Source: an uncultured Bacteroidales bacterium
Lineage (GTDB): Bacteria > Bacillota_I > Bacilli_A > ML615J-28 > CAG-698
Length of the DNA: 46,703 nt
Reading direction: 5' to 3'
Assembly: GCA_964646985.1 (NCBI GenBank)
Contig: CAZYFI010000002.1
Span: 1 to 46,703 of the forward strand
Program-made: the position numbers and the translations under genes
In this document: positions 6,029 through 44,804 of the stretch, piece after piece
How the letters are laid out: every line of letters starts with the position of its first letter
Numbering within the stretch: the stretch's first letter is position 1
Notes under the pieces: model-generated
Told to the model about the DNA's origin: nothing
The model's input: only the letters and a program-made list of their open reading frames with translations
Database searches by the model: none

Positions 6029-8017
6029 CTACCTTTCTCTTGACCTTGGGTCAACAGCATCACGAATAGCATCGCCAATAATGTTAATGCTAATTGTAGA
6101 AATACACAAGAAAATGGATGGGAATACCCAGCGCCACCAAGCTGCTTTAATGACTGACATTTCTTGTGCTCCACTAAGCATGTTACCCCAAGAAGGAGCT
6201 GGTAATTGTACACCAAAGCCTAAGAAAGACAATCCTGATTCAGTCAGCAATGAGCTTGCATAACCTAAAGTTGCATTGATAATAATAATCGTAAGAACGT
6301 TAGGAATGATATGTTTGAATATAATTGCTCGGGATTTAACGCCCAATGCTTTCGCAGCAACTACGAACTCTTTTTCACGTTCAGACAAAATTTGAGCACG
6401 AATTAATTGCGCCAAACCTGTCCAACTTAGAACACCTAAGATTACCATGATCATAACCATTCTATCTGTGGTATCAAAATCAGCATTTGCTTGATTTAAG
6501 ATAACCGACAAGGTCATGGCCAACGGGAAGAAAGGAATGGAACCGACAATTTCTGCAAAACGCATCAATAAGATATCAACTTTTCCACCATAAAAACCAG
6601 AAATACCACCAACGATGATACCAATTGTTGTAGAAATAACAACGGCAACCAAACCAATTGTTAAGGAAATTCTTCCGCCATTTACAACACGGGCAAATAC
6701 ATCACGGCCATATTCATCAGTACCAAACAAATGTCCTTTGTGTCCATAAGCTCCTAGCAAATTGCCTTCAGCATCTGTTACAAAATTTTGGAAAAAGCTT
6801 GAATAAATATTAACCGCTTGGGTTCCTTCACTTAATTCTTTTGGAACATCTGTTGCTCCATAAGTATCATCACCCCAAGAATAAACAGATCCATCATCCA
6901 AAATTGCAGAGATGTGTTGATAATTATCTGAACCAACAGCTGTCTTAGAAATTTTAACTACTCTTCCTTGAATTGCAGGATCAAAGTCTAATTCTTTCGA
7001 TAGATTATCTCCCCATACAACAATGGTTCCGTCTTCCCTTAAAACAACAGCACTACCAGCAGTAGTAACAAGTTGCTTGCCTTTTGCATCAGGTCCTAGT
7101 AAGACTGCAGGAATATTGGTTGAAACAGAGCCTGTACCAACGACTTTCACTGTTCCGTCATCAAGTAAGAAAGTTATGTTTTCTCGAGAAAAGCCAGCAT
7201 AAACGGCCTTTTTCCCTACCAAAGCTTGTACTAAATTATAAGGTCGTTTCGAAGTGTTTCCCCACATGAATACGCGGTTTTTGTTAGTAATTACAATCGT
7301 AACTTGGTTTTCTGCAACTACTTCAAGAACGCCGCCATCATCTTCAATTGCCTTCACAACATTGACTGGAGAAACATATCCTTTCATAAGCAAACTAGTT
7401 GGAATGTTTGTAATGCCAAAAGAAATGGTCTCGGTCACCAAACCAAAAGAAATCAAAGAGCCGTCCATTTTTTCTAAAACAAAGTGTTCAGTTCCGGCCC
7501 AAACACGTTTTGCTTTTAAACCCACAGTAATTGCTTCACCTTTTTTAATATCATCTGGTGCTGCTCCGCCTGATGGAAATCCTTCAGCAATTTTATCGAC
7601 GTCTACACCCCAAATATAAACATTGTTTTCTTTATCAATGCCCATACTAAAAGTTGATGCAACAGCAATGTCTAAAATTCCATTTTCCTTTAGTTTATCT
7701 GGAACACTCAACATTGAAAATCCAGGACTAATATTTGCTTGTGTTTTATTCACATAATAGATATCTGCTTTGATAAAAAGACTTCCAACAAAACAAAATA
7801 ATAATACTGCTAAAAAGACGCTAAGCCCAATAATTGCAAGTTTGTTTTTTACAAACTTTTTCGCTGTTACTTTAAGAGGGCTTTGTACAGCTTCTTCTTC
7901 AAGAATCGTCATCTCTTTGTGTGTACCAAAAAAACTTCTGGAAAACATCGATTTGATTGCACGGCCAATAACGATAAATATCTCTTTTATGTTTTGAAAT
8001 AAATTTCTTTTTTTCAT
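6029..8017 (-). CDS. oppC: Oligopeptide ABC permease OppC with a large extracytoplasmic RCC1-like repeat insertion
   Basis: The C-terminal 230 aa or so is a canonical OppC/DppC membrane domain (GTDEYGRDVFARV..., EAA-type loop AAKALGVKSRAIIFKHIIPN). Residues ~83-430, after TM1, are extra (see findings). Confidence 0.85.
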   Translation of the reverse strand: MKKRNLFQNIKEIFIVIGRAIKSMFSRSFFGTHKEMTILEEEAVQSPLKVTAKKFVKNKLAIIGLSVFLAVLLFCFVGSLFIKADIYYVNKTQANISPGFSMLSVPDKLKENGILDIAVASTFSMGIDKENNVYIWGVDVDKIAEGFPSGGAAPDDIKKGEAITVGLKAKRVWAGTEHFVLEKMDGSLISFGLVTETISFGITNIPTSLLMKGYVSPVNVVKAIEDDGGVLEVVAENQVTIVITNKNRVFMWGNTSKRPYNLVQALVGKKAVYAGFSRENITFLLDDGTVKVVGTGSVSTNIPAVLLGPDAKGKQLVTTAGSAVVLREDGTIVVWGDNLSKELDFDPAIQGRVVKISKTAVGSDNYQHISAILDDGSVYSWGDDTYGATDVPKELSEGTQAVNIYSSFFQNFVTDAEGNLLGAYGHKGHLFGTDEYGRDVFARVVNGGRISLTIGLVAVVISTTIGIIVGGISGFYGGKVDILLMRFAEIVGSIPFFPLAMTLSVILNQANADFDTTDRMVMIMVILGVLSWTGLAQLIRAQILSEREKEFVVAAKALGVKSRAIIFKHIIPNVLTIIIINATLGYASSLLTESGLSFLGFGVQLPAPSWGNMLSGAQEMSVIKAAWWRWVFPSIFLCISTISINIIGDAIRDAVDPRSRER

Positions 8018-11604: not shown

Positions 11605-11715
11605 CAAATATTTTTTCAGTAAGCGCTTTACTTTCATAATAATCTTCTTTTTGCTTGTTTTTGTTACAAAGAAATCGCTTACATCGCTATTTTCATGCAT
11701 TTTTTAAACTGCTAG

Positions 11716-11743: not shown

Positions 11744-11749
11744 GATAAC

Positions 11750-11968
11750 TATAAACAATGATAAGGAATAGTATAGTGTTTGCCTCTTTGTAAAGCGAGT
11801 GTTGGATCGTGAAAGCAACGCCAAAAGCCCACTAGAATGGACCTTAGAGTGCAATGAAGAAATGCATTGACGTTTTGTTCGCGTTAAGAACTTTGAGTGT
11901 ATTGTTAACAATAAACTAAGGTGGTACCGCGGAATATTTCGTCCTTAATTCAATTAAGGACTTTTTTT
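11750..11968 (+). promoter_or_regulatory. T-box riboswitch leader, Trp specifier (UGG)
   Basis: Conserved T-box sequence AAGGTGGTACCGCGG (11919-11933). Terminator gtccttaatt/aattaaggac (11941-11961) plus a T-run. Stem-I GA/AGTA elements (gataaggaatagta). Candidate specifier GAA-UGG-A at 11838-11840. Confidence 0.85.
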
Positions 11969-35135: not shown

Positions 35136-35328
35136 TAAAAGTCCTTAAGAAAAAATCCTAAGGACGAAATAAATCCGCGGTACCACCTTAGTTTTTAGAT
35201 TGCTCTAAACCCTCTTGTTATCTATTAGCTCACAAGTTGTAATTCCCGAACAATAAGCTTTGAATTTTCACCAACCATTCAAATCTCTAAAACTGCTTAT
35301 AAATTCAGTACTCATACTTGCTCAAACG
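35136..35328 (-). promoter_or_regulatory. T-box riboswitch leader, Tyr specifier (UAC)
   Basis: On the minus strand: AAGGTGGTACCGCGG (35175-35189), terminator gtccttagg/cttaaggac (35141-35165) plus a U-run, a GAGCAAGTA stem-I element, and candidate specifier GAAU-UAC-A at 35239-35241. Confidence 0.85.
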
Positions 35329-35330
35329 CT

Positions 35331-36320
35331 TTATTTAGTTGACTCTCGCCAAATCATTTTGTAATCAACCAAAATGTGTTTTGGTTTTTCATGTGTGCCG
35401 TTTTCTTTCATTAACTCGGTTAAATAAGCCATAGCACGATTGCCAATTTCATAAATTGGTGTTTCTACACAAGTAAGTTTTGGATTCGCCAGTTCAGCAT
35501 ACTTGGTGTTTTGAAATCCAATGACTTGGATGTCACTTGGAATATGATATCCTTTTTTTGTTGCAATGTTCATAAATGAAATGGCCATAGAATCACGAAC
35601 AAACAACGCAACTTCTGGAAGTTTGTTCTCTACAATTTGCATAAAATGTTTTTCATTTATGGCAATATCGCCACTTGAAAAAACAATGTTGGTTGGTAAT
35701 TTGGACTCTTCCATTGCTTTCACATAACCGCTTAGTTTTAAATCGTTTACGGTATATTTGTGTTCAGTACCAACAAACATGATGTTTTTGCTTCCACGTT
35801 CAATCATTTTTCTCGTGATGTTGTAAGCTGATTCTTGATAATCAATACAAACACTGCCAAATTTATCAGACTTTGGAATGGCATTGACAAACAAAACAGG
35901 AACCGGTGCATATTGTAACAACTTGGCTGTTTCTTGTGTCATTTCATCATTCATAAGTAGAACACCATCCACGCTTGACGCAATGACTTCACCCCATAAT
36001 TCTTGTTCTTGCTTTGGGTTTGAGTTAATGAACAAGCGAATGGTATATCCTAATTTCTTAGCACTGTCATCAATTCCTTGAATCATTTCTGCAACCGATG
36101 CTTGAGATATTCTTGGAACGACAATGGCAACCGTTGTCGAACGGCGACTTGCTAAACCACGCGCATTCGCGTTTGGTTTATAGCCTTTTTCTTTGATAAT
36201 TCGCAGCACTTTATTGCGCGTAGCTTCTTTCACTTTTTCAGGATGATTTAACACCCGTGAAACAGTAGCTAAACTAACCCCCGCTGCTCCAGCGATATCA
36301 TAAATTTTGGCTTGGTTCAT
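35331..36320 (-). CDS. ccpA: LacI-family regulator, CcpA-like
   Basis: N-terminus IYDIAGAAGVSLATVSRVLN...NARGLASRRSTTVAIVVP closely parallels CcpA (…ARGLASKKTTTVGVIIP). 329 aa. The gene symbol is tentative. Confidence 0.65.
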   Translation of the reverse strand: MNQAKIYDIAGAAGVSLATVSRVLNHPEKVKEATRNKVLRIIKEKGYKPNANARGLASRRSTTVAIVVPRISQASVAEMIQGIDDSAKKLGYTIRLFINSNPKQEQELWGEVIASSVDGVLLMNDEMTQETAKLLQYAPVPVLFVNAIPKSDKFGSVCIDYQESAYNITRKMIERGSKNIMFVGTEHKYTVNDLKLSGYVKAMEESKLPTNIVFSSGDIAINEKHFMQIVENKLPEVALFVRDSMAISFMNIATKKGYHIPSDIQVIGFQNTKYAELANPKLTCVETPIYEIGNRAMAYLTELMKENGTHEKPKHILVDYKMIWRESTK

Positions 36321-37644: not shown

Positions 37645-37674
37645 AAAGAAAAAAAAGCAGTTTCCTGCTTTTCT
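37645..37674 (-). terminator. Terminator after rplS
   Basis: Stem aagcag (37655-37660) / ctgctt (37665-37670). On the minus strand it is followed by a U8 run. Confidence 0.7.
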
Positions 37675-38022
37675 TTAATTGCGCTCTTTAATACGAGCTG
37701 CTTTTGCGGACAATGTACGAATATAATTCAATTTCGCACGACGAACCAAACCTTTACGTAATACTTCGATTTTCGCAATGTTAGGGGTATGAACTGGGAA
37801 AGTTCTTTCTACTCCAACACCATAAGAATTTTTACGTACAGTAAACGTTTCGCTAATTCCGCCTCCACGTCTTTTTATTACCAATCCTTCAAACATTTGA
37901 ATACGTTCGCGATTTCCTTCTTTGATCTTAACGTGCACTTTAACTGTGTCGCCAGGACGAAACTCAGGAACATCATTCTTCATGTAAGCGTTGGTAATGT
38001 CAGCAATCAATTGTTGACTCAT
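37675..38022 (-). CDS. rplS: 50S ribosomal protein L19
   Basis: [46 protein letters not shown] is a typical L19 sequence. Start is ATG 38022 behind AGGAG. The track start at 38082 is an upstream extension. Confidence 0.95.
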
Positions 38023-38149
38023 TGTTTTCACGCTCCTTCTGCCAATGTTCATTCTCATCACAAAAGGATGACAGCGGAACACCGTGATCAGCTAGACAGC
38101 CCTTGCTTCTAGCCTGATATATTATATCTTAAATCATGTGAAAAAGCAA
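38023..38149 (-). promoter_or_regulatory. rplS promoter plus a structured 5' leader of about 95 nt (possible L19-leader type autoregulatory RNA)
   Basis: On the minus strand, TTGCTT (38149-38144), a 17-nt spacer, then TATAAT (38126-38121). The leader contains gctag...ctagc and tcatc...gatga pairings. A Firmicute L19 leader family is known, but I cannot verify the match by eye. Confidence 0.45.
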
Positions 38150-38165
38150 GTTATTTCACAAAATA

Positions 38166-38615
38166 CTAACAAGTTTCACATTCTCCAACTTCAGGCACAA
38201 AACCATCACCCTTTAAGGTGGCATAGGTGTGATATCCACTAGCAAAGTAATGCACATTGCGATACCCAGCTTCTAAGAGCAAATGCGCCAAATAAGCACT
38301 ATCGCTACCGTCTTCATCCATAAGAATAATAAGATATTGATAATCATCCCCAATCAACAATTGAAGATGTTCAAAAATGGTGTCAAGGGCTTTTTCTTCT
38401 CCTAATGAATTGGTTGTTCGCATACAAAAGAACCCAGGAATACGCCCCAATTTGCATATTTCTTCACTACGCAAATCATATGCTTTTGTTTTTTGATTTC
38501 CAATGTTTTCTAAAATGCGATCAAATTGCGCTATGTCATTGTCTTGGTAAACATAAACTTTCCCTGAAGAACAACCTACAAGCAACAACAACAAAAGAAA
38601 CATCACGTGTTTCAT
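38166..38615 (-). CDS. Rhodanese-like lipoprotein lacking the catalytic cysteine, with a C-terminal CxxC
   Basis: Lipobox LLLVGC. Rhodanese-fold signatures (AYDLRSEEICKLGRIPG..., LLEAGYRNVHYFASGY), but the active-site loop reads LMDEDGSDS. Ends GECETC. Start is ATG 38615, overlapping the trmD TGA. Confidence 0.65.
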   Translation of the reverse strand: MKHVMFLLLLLLVGCSSGKVYVYQDNDIAQFDRILENIGNQKTKAYDLRSEEICKLGRIPGFFCMRTTNSLGEEKALDTIFEHLQLLIGDDYQYLIILMDEDGSDSAYLAHLLLEAGYRNVHYFASGYHTYATLKGDGFVPEVGECETC

Positions 38616-39340
38616 AACGTTTTTCCTTGCTTGATTTGTTCTAACCACTTTTTGTCTTCAGCTGATAAATTGGCTCTGTTTAACAAATCTTTGCGATACT
38701 GATAGGTTCGTTCAATGGCTTTAAATCTACGATATTGTCTAATTTTTTCGTGATCCCCCGATATCAGCACTTCAGGAACGCGAAGTGTTTCAAATACTTC
38801 AGGCCGAGTATATTGGGGATATTCTAAGAGCATATCCTGAAAACTTTCTGTCATTGTTGATTGATTATTTCCTAGCACATTTGGTAATAACCTCACAATA
38901 CTATCTACTATTGCCATAGCAGCAATCTCGCCTCCAGTTAAGACGAAATCACCAATAGAAACAACCTCATCTACATAGTTTAAAATTCGCTCGTCGATCC
39001 CTTCATAATGACCACATATAATGATGACATGCTCAAAATGAGCCAATTCTTGGGCTTTATTTTGCCCATAAATCAATCCTACGGGACTTGTCAATATTTT
39101 ATGTGCATTTGCATAATTAGGTATAGAGCGCAAACAAGCAACAATTGGTTCTACGCTGATAATCATTCCCGCACCACCACCATAGGAATAATCATCTACT
39201 TGCTTGCTTTTTTTGCTAGAAAATGTTCTAAAATCATGAATACGAATCTCAACAATCTGTTTTTCTATTGCTCGCTTAACAATCGAAGAAGAAAGCCCGG
39301 AAAACATTTCTGGAAATAAAGTTAAGATATCAACGATCAT
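38612..39340 (-). CDS. trmD: tRNA (guanine37-N1)-methyltransferase
   Basis: MIVDILTLFPEMF..., YGGGAGM and GHYEGIDER motifs. ATGA overlap with rimM. Confidence 0.95.
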   Translation of the reverse strand: MIVDILTLFPEMFSGLSSSIVKRAIEKQIVEIRIHDFRTFSSKKSKQVDDYSYGGGAGMIISVEPIVACLRSIPNYANAHKILTSPVGLIYGQNKAQELAHFEHVIIICGHYEGIDERILNYVDEVVSIGDFVLTGGEIAAMAIVDSIVRLLPNVLGNNQSTMTESFQDMLLEYPQYTRPEVFETLRVPEVLISGDHEKIRQYRRFKAIERTYQYRKDLLNRANLSAEDKKWLEQIKQGKTL

Positions 39341-39843
39341 AACAATCCCTCAATTGGCGTAATGATAATCATGCGATGAATGGTATCAACTTGCTTGATA
39401 AACTCAGGAACAAAAGGAATGAGGGACTCTTTGTTGTTTGTCTTCTTTACAACCAACAATATTCCTTGGGGGAGTGGTGTAATGTCCGACACTTCTCCAA
39501 TTAATTCCATATTTTCTAAATACACTTGTAATCCAATTAAATCATCATAATAAAATTCATTCTCAGGGAGTTCAGACAATTGATCACGATCAACATAAAC
39601 AGTAGATCCTACATAATCCAACACCATGTTGATATCAAAAAGATTGTTAAAGGTAATCAAATCCCATTGTTTGTGCACGCGATGCGTAGTGATCGTTATG
39701 GTTTCCATTTTCCCTTGTCTTTTCACATACAACGCATTGTTTTTTTGAAAACGTTCCTTGCGAAAATCAGAATCAGATTTTATTTTCACTTCACCCTTAA
39801 TCCCGTGGGTTCCAACTATGATGCCAACTTCAATTAATTTCAT
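39337..39843 (-). CDS. rimM: 16S rRNA processing protein RimM
   Basis: MKLIEVGIIVGTHGIKGEVKIK is a typical RimM N-terminus, and a PRC-barrel C-terminal half follows. Start is ATG 39843, overlapping the ATPase TGA (ATGA). Confidence 0.9.
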   Translation of the reverse strand: MKLIEVGIIVGTHGIKGEVKIKSDSDFRKERFQKNNALYVKRQGKMETITITTHRVHKQWDLITFNNLFDINMVLDYVGSTVYVDRDQLSELPENEFYYDDLIGLQVYLENMELIGEVSDITPLPQGILLVVKKTNNKESLIPFVPEFIKQVDTIHRMIIITPIEGLL

Positions 39844-42278
39844 TTGCTCACCTTCATCGCTCTCCAAGAATTTAACACAGCAATCAAAGAAACTCCAACA
39901 TCAGCAAACAAAGCTTCATAAATTAGAAAATCTAGTAAAAATGAAAAGACAGAACCTACAATAAATGGCTCAATTAATGCCAATGTCAATACGATAAACT
40001 TCACGCTTAATGCAAGCACTATATTTTGTACTACGATATGGCGTGTCTTTTTGGCTATTTTCTTTGCAATTGGAAGTTTCAATAAATCATCGGTCATCAG
40101 CACAATATCAGCAACTTGAATGGCAGCATCGGACCCCAACGCGCCCATCGCAATACCAATATCAGCACCACTCAATACTGGCGCATCGTTAATTCCGTCG
40201 CCAACAAAGACAACCTTGCTCGATTCTGGTGTGCTTGCTTTGATTTCTTGTAATTTTTCCACCTTCATAATCGGGGATAATTCAGAATAATATTCATCAA
40301 TTTGAAGTGCTTGAGATACTTCTTTTGCAACTTCAGCGGCATCTCCAGTTAACATAATTACCTTTTTTATGCCCATTGCTTTTAATTGTTGAATTGCTTC
40401 ATAAGCATTGTCTTTGATTTGATCTTTTACTAAAATACATCCCTCGGTTTTGCCGTTTATGGCAACAAAAACTTTTGTTCCAACAATTGTTACTTCTGGT
40501 GTTGTAATGTTTAAGGATTCTAAAAATTCATTTTTCCCAACAACAACATGCAAACCATCCACTAAATTGGTAACACCAAAACCAAGACCTTGCTTTTGTG
40601 ATGAAATTCTTGCTAGTGTAATGTTTTCTTGTCCATATGCTTCCACGATTGATTTCGCAATCAAATGGTTGGCGTTAAGTTCACAATGAGCAGCATATTC
40701 TAAAATTTGCTCTTTGGAATAGCTGCCAAAACTTAATGTTTCACTCACCACAAATTTACCTGTTGTAAGTGTCCCTGTTTTATCAAAAACAACGGTATCG
40801 ACATCATTCAAAGCTTCTAAATAGTTGCTTCCCTTAATTAAGATTCCTTGCCTGCTTGCTCCTCCGATTCCGCCAAAAAAACCAAGAGGAATTGATAAAA
40901 CCAAAGCGCACGGGCACGAAATAACAAGGAAGATTAAAGCAACCAAAATCGATTTTTTAAATCCGTTCGTCCAAGACAAATCATAAGTTGGTAAAATAAA
41001 CGGCAGTAAAAAAGCGAGTATAACCGCAACAATCACTACAATCGGCGTATAGTAACGGGCAAATTTAGAAATAAATGTCTCCGATTTCGCTTTTTGGCTA
41101 CTTGCGTTTTCTACAAGATTTAATATTTTCGAAACCATGGAATCTTCATATATTTTTGTGACTTTAATTTTTAATGTCCCATTGGTACTAATAGATCCTG
41201 ATAAAACTTGATTGCCACGTCTCACATCTTTGTACACACTTTCACCAGTTAACGCTGATACATCGAGTGCACTTTCGCCTTCAAAAACAATGCCATCTAA
41301 TGGAATTCGTTCACCGGCACGCACATAAATCATATCGCCTACTACCACTTCCATTGGATCAACCGATACAATTTCATTGTTGACAATGATATTTGCAGAT
41401 TCTGGCTGAATATCAATCAAAGCAGCAATCGATTTACGCGAATAATTGATAGCATGATGCTGAACCATTTCCCCAATTTTATAAAACACCATAACGAACA
41501 CGGCTTCATCATAATAGCCTACAATTAACGCTGTAATGGTCGCAAGCGACATCAAAAATTTTTCATCAAAAATGCGCCCAGAACGTATATTTTTATATGC
41601 ACCATATAACACGTCCCATGCAAGCATTACGTATCCAACTGTATAAGTAACGTAGATAATAACCGTAACAATAATGGGGCTTACCTCAGTAAATTGTTTT
41701 AATATTGTTTTTATAATATAACCAAAGAAGAAAATAGATACCCCAATAATAAAGAAATTTCTACCTACTTTATCATGTTTAAAATCATCTTCAAATTGGT
41801 GTTTTTTCTTGGTTTTTTCTAATACCCTAATGGCAGGATCAACGGTTGATGCGATTGCTTGTACTCTTTCTTGTAGATTTGCAATCAAATCAGCGTCTGT
41901 CGTTTCAATAATAAAACGAGTAGAAGCAAAATCTACAACAATAAATTCATATTGAAAGTTTCTTTTTGCAATTCGCTCTATTTTTGAAGAACAAGCAGCA
42001 CAATCAAGATTTTCTAATATCAACACTTTTCGATAAGTTTGTTTGACTTCGCGTGGCTTGATCTCAATGGCATCATCGACATTCTTTATCATTTTAATGA
42101 TTTTTTCTAATTCCGCATCCATTTCATCACTAGATAAAAACTCTAGTGTCAATATCTTCGTTTCTTTGTTTAGTTTGAATTTTCCTATAAAGTCTTTCGA
42201 TAAATCAAATTCGATTTTGCGAATTTTGTTTTGACTTTCTAGGTTATCTAAGTAAAATATTTTCTTCAATGATTTCAT
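39840..42278 (-). CDS. Heavy-metal P1B-type ATPase (Zn/Cd/Pb-type signatures)
   Basis: HMA motif LDCAACSSKIE, TM6 CPC (ISCPCALVLS), phosphorylation site DKTGTLT, GDGINDAP, and TM8 ADVGVSLIAVLNS (Asp as in ZntA/CadA-type pumps). Confidence 0.85.
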   Translation of the reverse strand: MKSLKKIFYLDNLESQNKIRKIEFDLSKDFIGKFKLNKETKILTLEFLSSDEMDAELEKIIKMIKNVDDAIEIKPREVKQTYRKVLILENLDCAACSSKIERIAKRNFQYEFIVVDFASTRFIIETTDADLIANLQERVQAIASTVDPAIRVLEKTKKKHQFEDDFKHDKVGRNFFIIGVSIFFFGYIIKTILKQFTEVSPIIVTVIIYVTYTVGYVMLAWDVLYGAYKNIRSGRIFDEKFLMSLATITALIVGYYDEAVFVMVFYKIGEMVQHHAINYSRKSIAALIDIQPESANIIVNNEIVSVDPMEVVVGDMIYVRAGERIPLDGIVFEGESALDVSALTGESVYKDVRRGNQVLSGSISTNGTLKIKVTKIYEDSMVSKILNLVENASSQKAKSETFISKFARYYTPIVVIVAVILAFLLPFILPTYDLSWTNGFKKSILVALIFLVISCPCALVLSIPLGFFGGIGGASRQGILIKGSNYLEALNDVDTVVFDKTGTLTTGKFVVSETLSFGSYSKEQILEYAAHCELNANHLIAKSIVEAYGQENITLARISSQKQGLGFGVTNLVDGLHVVVGKNEFLESLNITTPEVTIVGTKVFVAINGKTEGCILVKDQIKDNAYEAIQQLKAMGIKKVIMLTGDAAEVAKEVSQALQIDEYYSELSPIMKVEKLQEIKASTPESSKVVFVGDGINDAPVLSGADIGIAMGALGSDAAIQVADIVLMTDDLLKLPIAKKIAKKTRHIVVQNIVLALSVKFIVLTLALIEPFIVGSVFSFLLDFLIYEALFADVGVSLIAVLNSWRAMKVSK

Positions 42279-42280
42279 AT

Positions 42281-42559
42281 TTAAATATGAGAAGTGTGGT
42301 GAAACACCTGCGCTATCACTTCATGAATGTGATGATCGCTTAATTGATAATACACTTCTTTTCCCTTTCGCTCGCTTTTTACAACGTTATTGTTTTTTAG
42401 AATACGGAGTTGATGTGAAATCGCTGATGGCGTCATTTGCAGTTCATTGGCAATAAAACCAACCGGTTTTGCTTCGTTGCTCAGTGATTGCACAATATTT
42501 AAACGAGTAATATCACCCAAACATTTAAATATCAAAACACTTTTTTCTATTTGATTCAT
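42281..42559 (-). CDS. ArsR/SmtB-family metalloregulator with a CzrA-like alpha5 site
   Basis: wHTH (ITRLNIVQSL...ELQMTPSAISHQLRILK). The C-terminal D-x-H-x10-H-x2-H (SDHHIHEVIAQVFHHTSH) matches the alpha5 Zn/Co site spacing of 0, 2, 13, 16. Start is probably ATG 42559 behind GAGG. Confidence 0.8.
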   Translation of the reverse strand: MNQIEKSVLIFKCLGDITRLNIVQSLSNEAKPVGFIANELQMTPSAISHQLRILKNNNVVKSERKGKEVYYQLSDHHIHEVIAQVFHHTSHI

Positions 42560-42575
42560 AAATACCTCATTCATT

Positions 42576-42589
42576 TGAACACTTGTTCA
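42576..42589. promoter_or_regulatory. ArsR/SmtB-type operator candidate TGAACA-CT-TGTTCA
   Basis: Perfect 6-2-6 inverted repeat, 17 nt upstream of the regulator start codon and downstream of the -10 box. It resembles the core of 12-2-12 SmtB/CzrA operators. Confidence 0.6.
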
Positions 42590-42600
42590 TATCTTCATAT

Positions 42601-42629
42601 ATTATAAATGAAGCAAAACAATAAGTCAA
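42601..42629 (-). promoter_or_regulatory. SigA-type promoter of the arsR-ATPase(-rimM-trmD) unit
   Basis: On the minus strand, TTGACT (42629-42624), a 17-nt spacer, then TATAAT (42606-42601). Confidence 0.65.
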
Positions 42630-42640
42630 TTGATAAAATT

Positions 42641-42665
42641 AAAAAAAGTCAGAAAACTGACTTTT
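42641..42665 (-). terminator. Terminator-like hairpin after the KH-domain gene
   Basis: Stem aaaagtcag / ctgactttt (42643-42665) with a 4-nt loop. On the minus strand it is followed by a U-run (rc of A7 at 42641-42647). Confidence 0.6.
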
Positions 42666-42915
42666 AAAATGAATCAACTGATATTTCAATGCGCTTGCCA
42701 GCACGAGCTGCACAAGCATAAGCAATCGTTCGAATAGAATTAATGATTCTTCCTTTTTTGCCAATCAATCTGCCAACATCTTCAGGGTTAACTAAAATTT
42801 GGACATTGATTACATCTTCTTCATCAGCAAATGTTTTTACAACCATTTCTTCAGGAAAAGAAATAAGTGGCCCAACTAAGTCGCCGAGAAATTTTTCATA
42901 ATTAATTTCTTTCAT
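42664..42915 (-). CDS. KH-domain RNA-binding protein (YlqC/UPF0109 family)
   Basis: 83 aa with GRLIGKKGRIINSIRT (GxxG KH motif). Conserved position after rpsP. Confidence 0.85.
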   Translation of the reverse strand: MKEINYEKFLGDLVGPLISFPEEMVVKTFADEEDVINVQILVNPEDVGRLIGKKGRIINSIRTIAYACAARAGKRIEISVDSF

Positions 42916-42923
42916 CTCTGCAC

Positions 42924-43190
42924 CTACTTAGTTTGCTTGGAAAATTTTTCGATAATTCCTAATTTTGAAAGCAATGATTTTACTGTATCAGTGGGTTGAG
43001 CACCATTGTTAAGCCATTTCAATGCTTTTTCTTCATCGATTTTAAGCATATTCGTTTTTTCAATTGGATGATATGTTCCTAAAACTTCGATGAATCTGCC
43101 ATCACGAGGGTTACGAGAATCGGTTGCAACAACACGGTAAAACGGTCTTTTGTTTGCGCCAAATCTTTGTAATCTAATTTTTACTGCCAT
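42924..43190 (-). CDS. rpsP: 30S ribosomal protein S16
   Basis: [35 protein letters not shown] is a typical S16 sequence. Confidence 0.95.
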
Positions 43191-43220: not shown

Positions 43221-43249
43221 ATTATATCATATTCAAACAATGGTGTCAA
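43221..43249 (-). promoter_or_regulatory. SigA-type promoter of rpsP
   Basis: On the minus strand, TTGACA (43249-43244), a 17-nt spacer, then TATAAT (43226-43221). Exact consensus. Confidence 0.7.
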
Positions 43250-44548: not shown

Positions 44549-44797
44549 AAAAAAGTCCTCTGCAAAAAACTGCAGAGGACGTGTTTTACGTGGTGCCACC
44601 TCATATTTAGTCTAAAAAAAGACCCTCATCAAGTACAAACATACTTTAGCTTTTGGTAACGGAAGCTTCCGTGGCGCCCTACTTTACATTCAAACGCCCT
44701 CTCACAAACCCATTCAAAAATAATCATTTTATCAGTTCACACCAACCACTGACTCTCTGGAAAACAATTTACTTTTTACTTGCTTTTGCTCATCGAT
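44549..44797 (-). promoter_or_regulatory. T-box riboswitch leader, Trp specifier (UGG), controlling trpB
   Basis: On the minus strand: AGGTGGCACCACG (44589-44601), terminator gtcctctgc/gcagaggac (44555-44580) plus a U-run, a GATGAGCAAAAGCAAGTA stem-I element, and candidate specifier GAA-UGG-G at 44710-44712. Confidence 0.8.
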
Positions 44798-44804
44798 TTA
44801 TGAC

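Follow-up and report, generated by a model that had tools for sequence, protein, structure and literature searches.

A metal-efflux cassette nested in the rpsP-rimM-trmD-rplS operon of a clade of uncultured Bacilli

We report that in the window, i.e. the whole stretch of 46,703 nucleotides that was analysed, the conserved cluster rpsP-KH-rimM-trmD-rplS is interrupted by a metal-efflux cassette (a repressor gene, arsR, and a P1B-2-type ATPase gene) and by a separate lipoprotein gene. Transcription most likely reaches rimM and trmD through the ATPase gene, both by read-through of a terminator (T1) that follows the KH gene and from an autoregulated, metal-inducible promoter. We consider the explanation as a whole, covering the operon type, the origin of the cassette and the transcript with two starts, to be rather probable. 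The locus would be an operon of the Bacillus subtilis type, in which a promoter, rpsP, khpA, T1, rimM and trmD are followed by a P3-type promoter with an L19 leader, rplS and the terminator T3, and where the slot of ylqD (T1 to rimM) would be occupied by a self-contained cassette with a sigma-A promoter, a 12-2-12-type operator and the genes for a CzrA-type repressor and a P1B-2 ATPase. This cassette would have become fixed in a single event, before a large clade of uncultured Bacilli (digesters, wastewater, gut) diversified, and been inherited vertically thereafter. The rimM, trmD and lipoprotein genes would lack promoters of their own and make up the distal portion of a transcript with the order arsR-ATPase-rimM-trmD-lipoprotein. 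This transcript would have two starts, the strong rpsP promoter, via T1 read-through as the ancestral route, and the arsR promoter, which metal is expected to derepress. Since the latter is negatively autoregulated it is expected never to be fully off, and under metal stress rimM and trmD would rise as passengers.

The genes and signals are all on the minus strand, in the order rpsP, KH gene, hairpin terminator, promoter, operator, arsR, ATPase gene, rimM, trmD, lipoprotein gene and rplS. The rpsP gene for ribosomal protein S16 (42924-43190; Pfam PF00886, E 4e-27) is preceded by the best promoter in the region (43221-43249; TTGACA-17-TATAAT plus an extended TG, 12/12 matches), which has an equivalent 12/12 promoter in the relative L082. 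The KhpA-type (khpA/ylqC-type) KH-domain gene follows (42664-42915; PF13083, E 6e-19), and T1 (42637-42665), the hairpin AAAAGTCAG-TTTT-CTGACTTTT with a T-run, begins within its stop codon. The arsR promoter (42601-42629; TTGACT-17-TATAAT) is with 11/12 matches second only to that of rpsP. Downstream of the operator region (42570-42613) are the genes for a CzrA-like ArsR/SmtB metalloregulator (42281-42574; Pfam HTH_5, ArsR family) and for a P1B-2-type (Zn/Cd/Pb) efflux ATPase (39840-42278; Pfam E1-E2 ATPase and HMA domains), and then rimM (39337-39843; Pfam RimM), with its ribosome-binding site GAAGGTGAG inside the 3' end of the ATPase gene, trmD (38612-39340; Pfam TrmD) and a rhodanese-like lipoprotein gene (38166-38615; PF00581, 34 bits). 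Stop and start codons overlap as ATGA, read directly from the sequence, at ATPase/rimM (39843-39840), rimM/trmD (39340-39337) and trmD/lipoprotein gene (38615-38612). Hence, the interrupted cluster, the promoter and operator belonging to the cassette and the three overlaps, all described in an earlier sequence-only reading, were recovered.

The ATPase scores 446 bits against TIGR01512, the IB2 Cd/Zn-family model (cutoff 313), while its score against the Cu ATPase model is below the cutoff of that model. Its best solved structure is ZntA (4UMV, E 4.5e-84), and the motifs CxxC, CPC, DKTGT, GDGIND and ADVG are kept in six lineages. We predict that it is a P1B-2 exporter, probably for Zn/Cd/Pb. 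The repressor matches NF033788 (82 bits, cutoff 55) and, among solved structures, best Staphylococcus aureus CzrA (E 1e-18). Its D80, H82, H93 and H96 align to CzrA residues 84, 86, 97 and 100, and all four alpha5 ligands are kept in six orthologues, which suggests a CzrA-type alpha5-site ArsR protein that would sense Zn/Co. The ATG at 42558 is a more probable translation start than 42574, as it has a GAGG ribosome-binding site and fits the N-termini of the orthologues. The arsR gene is transcribed (RNA contigs X30 and X31).

The operator core at 42589-42576 is a perfect 6-2-6 palindrome, TGAACA-AG-TGTTCA, within an imperfect 12-2-12 repeat; it is present as a single copy in the window, the chance expectation being 0.22 at ≤1 mismatch. 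A second inverted repeat, CTTCAT...ATGAAG (42593-42613), flanks the -10 box of the arsR promoter. The candidate operator fits the SmtB/ArsR 12-2-12 type (PMC8790569). A promoter at this position is kept in L082, L083, L084, L140, L142, L143 and L145, and the core TGAAyA-NN-TGTTCA in L082, L083, L084, L142 and L143; L140 has the variant TGAGCA-TT-TGTTCA, and no clear copy was seen in L002, L003 or L146. As in the CzrA-regulated Zn/Co efflux operons (S. aureus czrAB; B. subtilis CzrA with cadA/czcD) and the SmtB/ZiaR-type arsR-ATPase pairs, the locus encodes an alpha5-site repressor with D-x-H...H-x2-H ligands, the gene of which comes first in its operon and is followed by that of a metal exporter. 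In contrast to those operons, the exporter gene runs into rimM, trmD and the lipoprotein gene with overlapping codons and no terminator, and the locus is situated downstream of a ribosomal-protein promoter.

Continuity of RNA over the ATPase/rimM junction was evident from metatranscriptome contigs of the window lineage (X16, 39159-40004; X15, 39067-39892; X26, 39825-39979). In the L001 lineage a single 5.2-kb RNA contig extends from the start of rpsP to the end of rplS in three of four runs of one sample, and beyond rplS in the fourth; its depth is 37-55 compared to 0-4 upstream, and the junction crossings recurred in three independent runs that belong to other studies. These RNA data are assembled contigs, whose depth is flat and which carry no information on strand.

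Alternatively, rimM and trmD might be transcribed independently from one or more constitutive promoters located inside rimM or towards the 3' end of the ATPase gene, in which case the nesting would have no regulatory consequence for these genes. We consider this unlikely. The earlier reading saw no sigma-A promoter in the last ≈150 nt of the ATPase gene, and our search extends this to the ≈760 nt ahead of rimM, where no sense-strand site reached 9/12 matches. No promoter-like site was positionally conserved among six lineages in the last 900 nt, where L082 and L001, which have higher GC, have no site above 8/12, and synonymous sites towards the 3' end of the gene show no raised conservation. 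In the A+T-rich window the number of weak promoter-like sites matches that of shuffled sequence (25 found, 24.4 expected), so that functional ones could be hidden among them; one weak, unconserved candidate has TTGACA at 39989-39984 but a poor -10. Another, TTGATA-16-TATCAT (39389-39362; 10/12), lies inside rimM, 22 nt ahead of trmD, but is not conserved in L082. Internal signals have also been described for the B. subtilis operon, e.g. T2 within trmD (PMC10100781). Against internal promoters, the RNA contigs reach 40004, upstream of any candidate near rimM, the 4-nt overlap between rimM and the ATPase stop codon is kept in L082, L083, L084, L003/L085, L143, L144 and L146, and in L002 rimM starts 23 nt after arsR.

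Transcription through the ATPase gene, the reading that we prefer, would begin in part upstream of T1. The T1 hairpin (42665-42644) has 9 bp followed by the T-run, with a folding energy of -10.4 kcal/mol (z = -4.3 vs shuffles), and a hairpin is kept at this position in 10 relatives despite differing sequence. T1 (-9 to -10 kcal/mol) is only moderately weaker than T3 at the operon end (-13 kcal/mol). In Sporosarcina, Fonticella and other Firmicute outgroups a hairpin with a T-run likewise directly follows the KH stop codon, and as it is only 8-35 nt from the rimM start there is no room for a promoter in between. The hairpin thus appears, from these comparisons, to be the ancestral T1 and not to have arrived with the insert. 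In B. subtilis (ylxM-ffh-rpsP-ylqC-ylqD-rimM-trmD-rplS), the promoter is just upstream of rpsP and T1 directly follows the KH gene; neither rimM nor trmD has a promoter of its own, and all rimM-containing transcripts were assigned to promoters upstream of rpsP and end at T2 or T3, hence extending past T1, which makes read-through the canonical route to rimM (PMC10100781). By analogy, T1 is probably an ancestral leaky terminator (attenuator) also here; this leakiness is deduced from homology, since none of the assembled metatranscriptome contigs bridges T1 into arsR. The earlier reading was therefore right about the presence of a terminator after the KH gene, whereas read-through of it is not the unusual, inserted wiring that it had proposed.

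What is unusual is limited to two features: a metal-responsive promoter has been added, and passenger genes amounting to 2.8 kb separate T1 from rimM. Compared to B. subtilis, ylqD is missing and its slot holds the 2.8-kb arsR-ATPase cassette with a second, regulated promoter downstream of T1, and there is an extra lipoprotein gene after trmD. The four core genes are co-transcribed also in the E. coli trmD operon (rpsP-rimM-trmD-rplS), which differs in having no KH gene, T1-type terminator or insert and in that differential expression is mainly translational. In E. coli, RimM and TrmD are required at far lower levels than S16 and L19.

It is highly improbable that a chimeric assembly, or an insertion that is recent and specific to one strain, accounts for the arrangement. 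Although the contig is of metagenome type and from an uncultured organism, DNA contigs from independent bioreactor and landfill metagenomes span all junctions (X1 records 4-6, X2 record 32), and the same order is present in >14 independently assembled relatives; on these grounds we rejected misassembly, one of the outcomes against which the earlier reading had been set. The synteny comparison that it proposed revealed an arrangement conserved across a large clade. Specifically, all relatives that were compared share the order, namely seven lineages (genome and metagenome scans) and 8/8 sampled ATPase homologues (48-65% identity). The cassette lies between the KH gene and rimM in L082, L083, L084, L003/L085/L088/L121, L140 and L142-L146, while L001/L141 have only the ATPase gene, having lost arsR, T1 and the arsR promoter. 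L002 has lost the ATPase gene; for L147, ATPase-rimM-trmD is visible on a contig that begins just upstream of the ATPase gene, the KH side being outside. The cassette is absent from all >100 outgroup loci. In a neighbour-joining tree based on S16, KH, RimM and TrmD the carriers form one clade (77% bootstrap); lineages with the full cassette occur on either side of its basal split, and both partial forms are nested within. Moreover, the sequence identities of the ATPase and of ArsR vary in step with those of the housekeeping genes, which also speaks against a recent insertion.

The linkage might be adaptive rather than a frozen accident. In one version metal would raise RimM/TrmD and thereby tie ribosome maturation and the m1G37 methylation of tRNA to the load of Zn/Cd; in the other, the ribosomal promoter would supply the exporter with growth-rate-coupled basal expression. 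We regard such adaptation as quite improbable, even though the linkage is retained across deep divergence (TrmD to 60% and ATPase to 48% identity), the ribosomal transcript of L001/L141 simply includes the ATPase gene, which has RNA coverage at a comparable contig depth, L142 gained a DtxR-like regulator gene and FeoAB at the same slot, and L002 retains arsR and its promoter directly before rimM. No mechanism connecting RimM/TrmD with Zn/Cd is known to us, nor did a literature search reveal one. Unrelated cargo is also accepted at this slot: L051 carries a GNAT gene plus an ABC exporter there, Listeria floridensis a mixed insert of 4 kb and L140 a methyltransferase gene. Furthermore, once rimM had been separated from its promoter only precise deletions would be tolerated, which alone explains the long retention. 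Given that read-through to rimM/trmD is the normal Bacillus design, we see this metal-efflux cassette, nested in a ribosomal operon throughout one clade of uncultured Bacilli, as a curious variant of an operon rather than a new mechanism.

The lipoprotein has a lipobox (LLVGC), a rhodanese domain where Asp replaces the catalytic Cys in the alignment, and four conserved Cys including a C-terminal CxxC; orthologues are present in L001, L002, L082, L083, L140-L143 and L147. The rplS gene for ribosomal protein L19 (37675-38022; PF01245, E 4e-50) has, as noted earlier, its own promoter (38149-38121; TTGCTT-17-TATAAT, read from the sequence), which is below the promoter-scan threshold because of its weak -35; the motif CTTGC...TATAAT is kept in five lineages. 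A probable L19 leader (38042-38085) matches RF00556 with 26.7 bits, under the gathering score of 36 (E 0.015), and its GTTCCGCTG core is kept in relatives. The promoter corresponds to P3 of B. subtilis, where rplS likewise has a separate promoter and a leader and is followed by T3 (PMC10100781). Here T3 (37645-37676) is a hairpin followed by eight T.

The gene order and positions in the sequence-only reading, which had a metal-efflux module and a lipoprotein gene inside the rpsP-KH-rimM-trmD-rplS cluster, were confirmed, with all elements on the minus strand. A sigma-A promoter (12/12 in the consensus scan; 43249-43221) precedes rpsP (43190-42924) and a KhpA-type KH gene (42915-42664), and a 9-bp hairpin with a T-run, referred to as T1 following the B. 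subtilis naming, starts inside the KH stop codon (42665-42637). Thereafter come the parts of what we refer to as the cassette: the arsR promoter TTGACT-17-TATAAT (11/12; 42629-42601), the perfect palindrome TGAACA-AG-TGTTCA (42589-42576), an ArsR-family gene (42574-42281, with 42558 as the more likely start) and a heavy-metal P-type ATPase gene encoding 812 aa (42278-39840). The cassette is followed by rimM (39843-39337), trmD (39340-38612) and a lipoprotein gene with a rhodanese-like domain (38615-38166), and the three ATGA stop/start overlaps are positioned exactly as first noted. The rplS gene (38022-37675) has its own conserved promoter (38149-38121), a probable L19 leader (38085-38042) and a terminator, the T3 hairpin, at its 3' side. 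This leader was the only candidate that the Rfam search for riboswitches and leaders gave near the cassette; it scores below the gathering threshold of RF00556 (26.7 bits vs 36, E 0.015), and the match is full-length, in the expected place and has a core that is kept in relatives. Elsewhere in the window, three T-box leaders exceed the gathering threshold of Rfam: 11749-11949 (+), 35157-35335 (-) and 44572-44802 (-), where the last precedes a lone trpB-like gene (44464-43289) directly upstream of the rpsP promoter.

The predicted products had been named a CzrA-like repressor and a P1B ATPase, and both identities were correct, with CzrA and ZntA as the best solved structures and the IB2 model passed by the ATPase. 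The repressor passes PF01022 (HTH_5, winged helix; 43 bits vs 22) and NF033788 (82 bits vs 55), and among solved structures it matches chains of S. aureus CzrA best (E about 1e-18). Residues D80, H82, H93 and H96 align to CzrA positions 84, 86, 97 and 100 (chains 1r1u and 4ggg), which we take to be the Asp/His/His/His ligands of the alpha5 Zn/Co site; all four are invariant in the six aligned orthologues, in which a conserved alpha3N Cys pair is absent. The 6-2-6 palindrome is the sole copy in the window (0.22 expected by chance), its core TGAACA-NN-TGTTCA is typical of SmtB/ArsR 12-2-12 sites, and an imperfect 12-2-12 inverted repeat near the predicted transcription start is conserved in relatives; a second inverted repeat brackets the -10 box. 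Operators of the 12-2-12 type have been described for the SmtB/ArsR family (PMC8790569). Domain, ligand set and operator type are thus those of a predicted alpha5 (CzrA-type) ArsR/SmtB sensor. Concerning the start of arsR, the longest reading frame begins at 42574, abuts the operator and lacks a ribosome-binding site. Since the ATG at 42558 is preceded, at a distance of 8 nt, by a GAGG site and agrees with the N-termini of the orthologues, the automatic annotation probably over-extends the gene by five codons. The arsR genes of L083 (a close relative) and L145 (a sampled ATPase homologue locus) may have very short leaders or be leaderless.

The ATPase passes TIGR01512 (IB2, Cd/Zn family; 446 bits vs 313) and the NCBIfam heavy-metal model, and falls below the cutoff of the Cu model TIGR01511 (IB1; 364 bits vs 397). 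Among solved structures ZntA (4UMV, E 4.5e-84) matches it best, and both the CPC motif and the transmembrane Lys are aligned. CAAC at position 93 (N-terminal HMA domain), CPC at 455 and ADVG at 792 were identified, and CxxC, CPC, DKTGT, GDGIND and the C-terminal ADVG are kept in six lineages. We take CPC, the Lys of the penultimate transmembrane helix and the Asp of the last one (ADxG) to be Zn/Cd specificity residues. The subtype is most likely P1B-2 (Zn/Cd/Pb), and the transported metal would be one of these three.

The last gene before rplS encodes a protein with the lipobox MKHVMFLLLLLLVGC, which fits the signal-peptide pattern [LVI][ASTVI][GAS]C, and the orthologues have LIGC, LSAC, LSSC or LASC; an LPAM_1 match, in the homologue locus L140, is weak. 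The rhodanese-like domain passes Pfam (34 bits vs 22.2). Its active-site loop is MDEDGSDS, in which an Asp sits where, judged against the canonical rhodanese loop, we would expect the catalytic Cys; the four closest of six aligned orthologues also have Asp at this position, and the domain is predicted to be rhodanese-like only. Neither solved structures (PDB) nor NCBIfam gave a match to this protein. Four Cys, among them those of a CxxC or CxC at the very C-terminus, are kept in all orthologues and could form an extracytoplasmic metal or thiol site. Most of the clade has the gene, also L002, the lineage that lacks the ATPase gene; it is missing from L003 and L144-L146.

Misassembly, raised in the sequence-only reading, and a recent insertion are ruled out by independent DNA contigs and wide synteny. 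Every junction is covered by contigs from independent bioreactor and landfill metagenomes, and the comparison of related genomes that had been proposed places the cassette at the same site throughout the clade. The comparison covers 139 loci, found by searching GTDB species genomes with TrmD and metagenome contigs with RimM. In more than 100 outgroup loci KH and rimM are neighbours, and the closest relatives carry the cassette at the same site (L082/L081, L083, L084 and L003/L085/L088/L121, the latter being Coprobacillus sp. CAG:698-like gut MAGs). Searching with the ATPase gave >100 clusters at 47-83% identity, named as Bacilli or Acholeplasmataceae MAGs. The ATPase gene is directly followed by rimM-trmD in all eight sampled homologues (48-65% identity), with rpsP and KH upstream in seven; the eighth contig (L147) begins just upstream of the ATPase gene. 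In a neighbour-joining tree based on S16, KH, RimM and TrmD the carriers group together (77% bootstrap), and the full cassette occurs on each side of the basal split. The lineages with partial cassettes are nested: L001/L141 ('UBA3946') keep the ATPase gene without arsR, T1 and the arsR promoter, and L002 keeps T1, promoter and arsR, with the ATPase reading frame cleanly missing and rimM 23 nt after arsR. ATPase and ArsR identities drop in step with those of housekeeping proteins. These data fit a cassette that was inserted once, long ago, was inherited vertically and was later lost in part in some lineages. The KH-ATPase spacer of L001 was rejected as a structured leader, its folding energy being no better than that of shuffled sequences (z 0.37). 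On L147, one gene (P0063; 137-2809) encodes an 890-aa product with both ArsR HTH and ATPase domains, suggesting either that repressor and pump are fused or that gene calling or a frameshift produced an artefact; translation of the gene does not reproduce the database protein exactly.

Dependence of rimM and trmD on read-through of the KH terminator had been called unusual; we find that it is the norm for the rpsP operon. A hairpin with a T-run directly after the KH stop codon is present in 15 of the 66 loci with a KH-rimM distance of ≤450 nt, seven of them in Sporosarcina and others in Fonticella and several MAGs. At these loci the ribosome-binding site and start codon of rimM usually lie within about 8-35 nt of the hairpin, leaving no room for a promoter. 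In B. subtilis, T1 is "downstream of ylqC", the equivalent hairpin position, and the only promoters located by Northern and Rend-seq data lie ahead of ylxM, immediately ahead of rpsP and ahead of rplS; the rimM transcripts are assigned to the first two, extend past T1 and end at T2 or T3 (PMC10100781). Because outgroup loci carry T1 hairpins and the B. subtilis transcripts pass T1, read-through is, by analogy, the ancestral route, and the normal one, by which rimM and trmD are expressed less strongly than rpsP. The post-KH hairpin is hence ancestral and not part of the inserted wiring, and the cassette was dropped between T1 and rimM, in the slot of ylqD in Bacillus and Listeria. Ten cassette-bearing lineages keep a hairpin at the T1 position with a wholly different sequence in each (e.g. 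AAAAGTCAG, AAGAGTTAAC, CCATAAG, GTTAGC, ATACCAGT and TTTCCATGG), which indicates that selection acts on the predicted structure. The window thus resembles the B. subtilis-type operon in having T1 directly after the KH gene, a separate rplS promoter with a probable leader, and T3 after rplS, whereas it differs in having an 11/12 promoter with an operator between T1 and rimM.

The remark that no promoter is visible upstream of rimM held. No sense-strand site of at least 9/12 was found in the window within about 760 nt upstream of rimM, and no candidate is positionally conserved across six lineages. The GC-richer loci L082 and L001, where chance matches are rare, gave nothing above 8/12 in 900 nt, and a 10/12 site inside rimM (39389-39362) is not conserved. 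Third-codon-position conservation is flat along the ATPase gene, which is a weak test given that synonymous sites are saturated (0.25-0.45 identity throughout). A conserved internal promoter was rejected on the basis of these scans and this profile. The main rival, an unrecognised internal promoter that drives rimM and trmD, we consider unlikely. In at least eight lineages, both the 4-nt overlap of ATPase stop and rimM start and a rimM ribosome-binding site inside the 3' end of the ATPase gene are kept. The RNA evidence consists of assembled contigs only. In the window lineage, metatranscriptome contigs X16 (39159-40004), X15 (39067-39892) and X26 (39825-39979, 100% identity) cross the ATPase/rimM junction, and the arsR and ATPase gene bodies are covered at depths similar to those of rimM and trmD. 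No RNA contig bridges T1 into arsR, 42538-42647 being uncovered in ten metatranscriptome runs that gave short, low-depth contigs only; the window organism is absent from the digester runs rich in the L001 lineage. For L001, four digester runs of one sample gave one RNA contig that starts at rpsP (6416-6441) and ends at the rplS stop codon (11639-11654) in three of the four runs, and continues past rplS in the fourth. Its depth is 37-55 vs 0-4 immediately upstream, so it is RNA and not contaminating DNA. Crossings from KH into the ATPase gene and from the ATPase gene into rimM were seen again in three runs from other studies. Hence, continuous RNA across the ATPase/rimM junction is present in two lineages.

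Our preferred model, which we regard as probable, is that a transcript from either the rpsP or the arsR promoter carries rimM, trmD and the lipoprotein gene as its distal genes. By the first route, transcription would start at the rpsP promoter, partially read through T1 and continue into arsR, the ATPase gene, rimM, trmD and the lipoprotein gene; by the second, it would start at the arsR promoter and run through the ATPase gene into rimM and trmD. Since the repressor gene comes first in the unit that the repressor controls, the arsR promoter would be negatively autoregulated, with a non-zero basal level, and metal, probably Zn, Co or Cd, would raise its activity, with rimM and trmD rising as passengers. 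This would be tolerable given a low demand for RimM and TrmD and persistence of the ancestral read-through. The demand for both proteins is low in E. coli and B. subtilis.

Alternatively, the nesting may have been selected: an exporter gene in the rpsP operon would let basal efflux scale with ribosome synthesis, ribosomes being a major zinc pool, while metal stress would boost RimM and TrmD, and the slot would have become a metal-homeostasis island in a hard-wired link between metal status and maturation of the ribosome or tRNA. Three observations lend this some colour: the L001 pump gene is simply part of a ribosomal transcript, L002 retained arsR and its promoter before rimM, and L142 gained FeoAB and a divergent gene for a DtxR-like regulator at this site; however, the slot also takes unrelated cargo, and retention is expected anyway once rimM depends on transcription through the insert. 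We hold such an adaptive link to be quite improbable.

If the model of distal genes holds, two growth-critical translation factors sit permanently behind a metal-responsive promoter and a membrane-pump gene in uncultured, widespread Bacilli from digesters and gut. In bacteria where this was tested, TrmD is essential, and loss of RimM leads to severe growth defects. The arrangement would be a natural example of a foreign regulated cassette captured in a housekeeping operon and then hard to remove, and the clade provides its own controls: repressor, terminator and promoter are missing from one lineage and the pump from another, and a third has additional genes for iron transport. It is also a clean synteny marker for the clade and a warning to annotation pipelines that break up operons wherever a terminator-like hairpin occurs. 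In the literature searched, we found no work that connects czrA or P-type ATPases with rimM/trmD, and no description of a cassette nested in the rpsP-rimM operon. Both building blocks are textbook and no new protein or mechanism is involved; it is the nesting that appears to be new, an operon curiosity that is well conserved, comes with natural controls and opens no new question.

The KH-rimM site seems to be a recurrent insertion point. In L142 (600-4000), an abundant lineage, the slot has gained a divergent DtxR/MntR-family regulator gene on the opposite strand as well as FeoA, FeoB and a 58-aa reading frame upstream of arsR-ATPase, and looks like a small metal-homeostasis island; its arsR promoter has the near-perfect palindrome CACATATGAACA-AA-TATTCATATGTG. 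A Mycoplasmatota MAG (L051, 6900-9500) has a GNAT acetyltransferase gene and an ABC exporter (ATPase and permease genes) at this position, and Listeria floridensis (L047, 5340-9480) has ~4 kb of inserted genes ahead of ylqD, among which an alcohol-dehydrogenase-like gene and an esterase-like one lie on the opposite strand. In three Izemoplasmatales-type loci (L007, L009 and L012), rpsP and KH are missing upstream of rimM, and a P1B ATPase gene (36-37% identity) is located ~3 kb downstream of rplS on the opposite strand, which may be a coincidence. Finally, in L145 (2125-2404) the T1 hairpin (AACTACACATTTGTGTAGTT) is duplicated, and the two copies flank an element of ~190 nt that has inverted ends and lies between KH and the arsR promoter; this resembles a small MITE-like insertion that duplicated its target.
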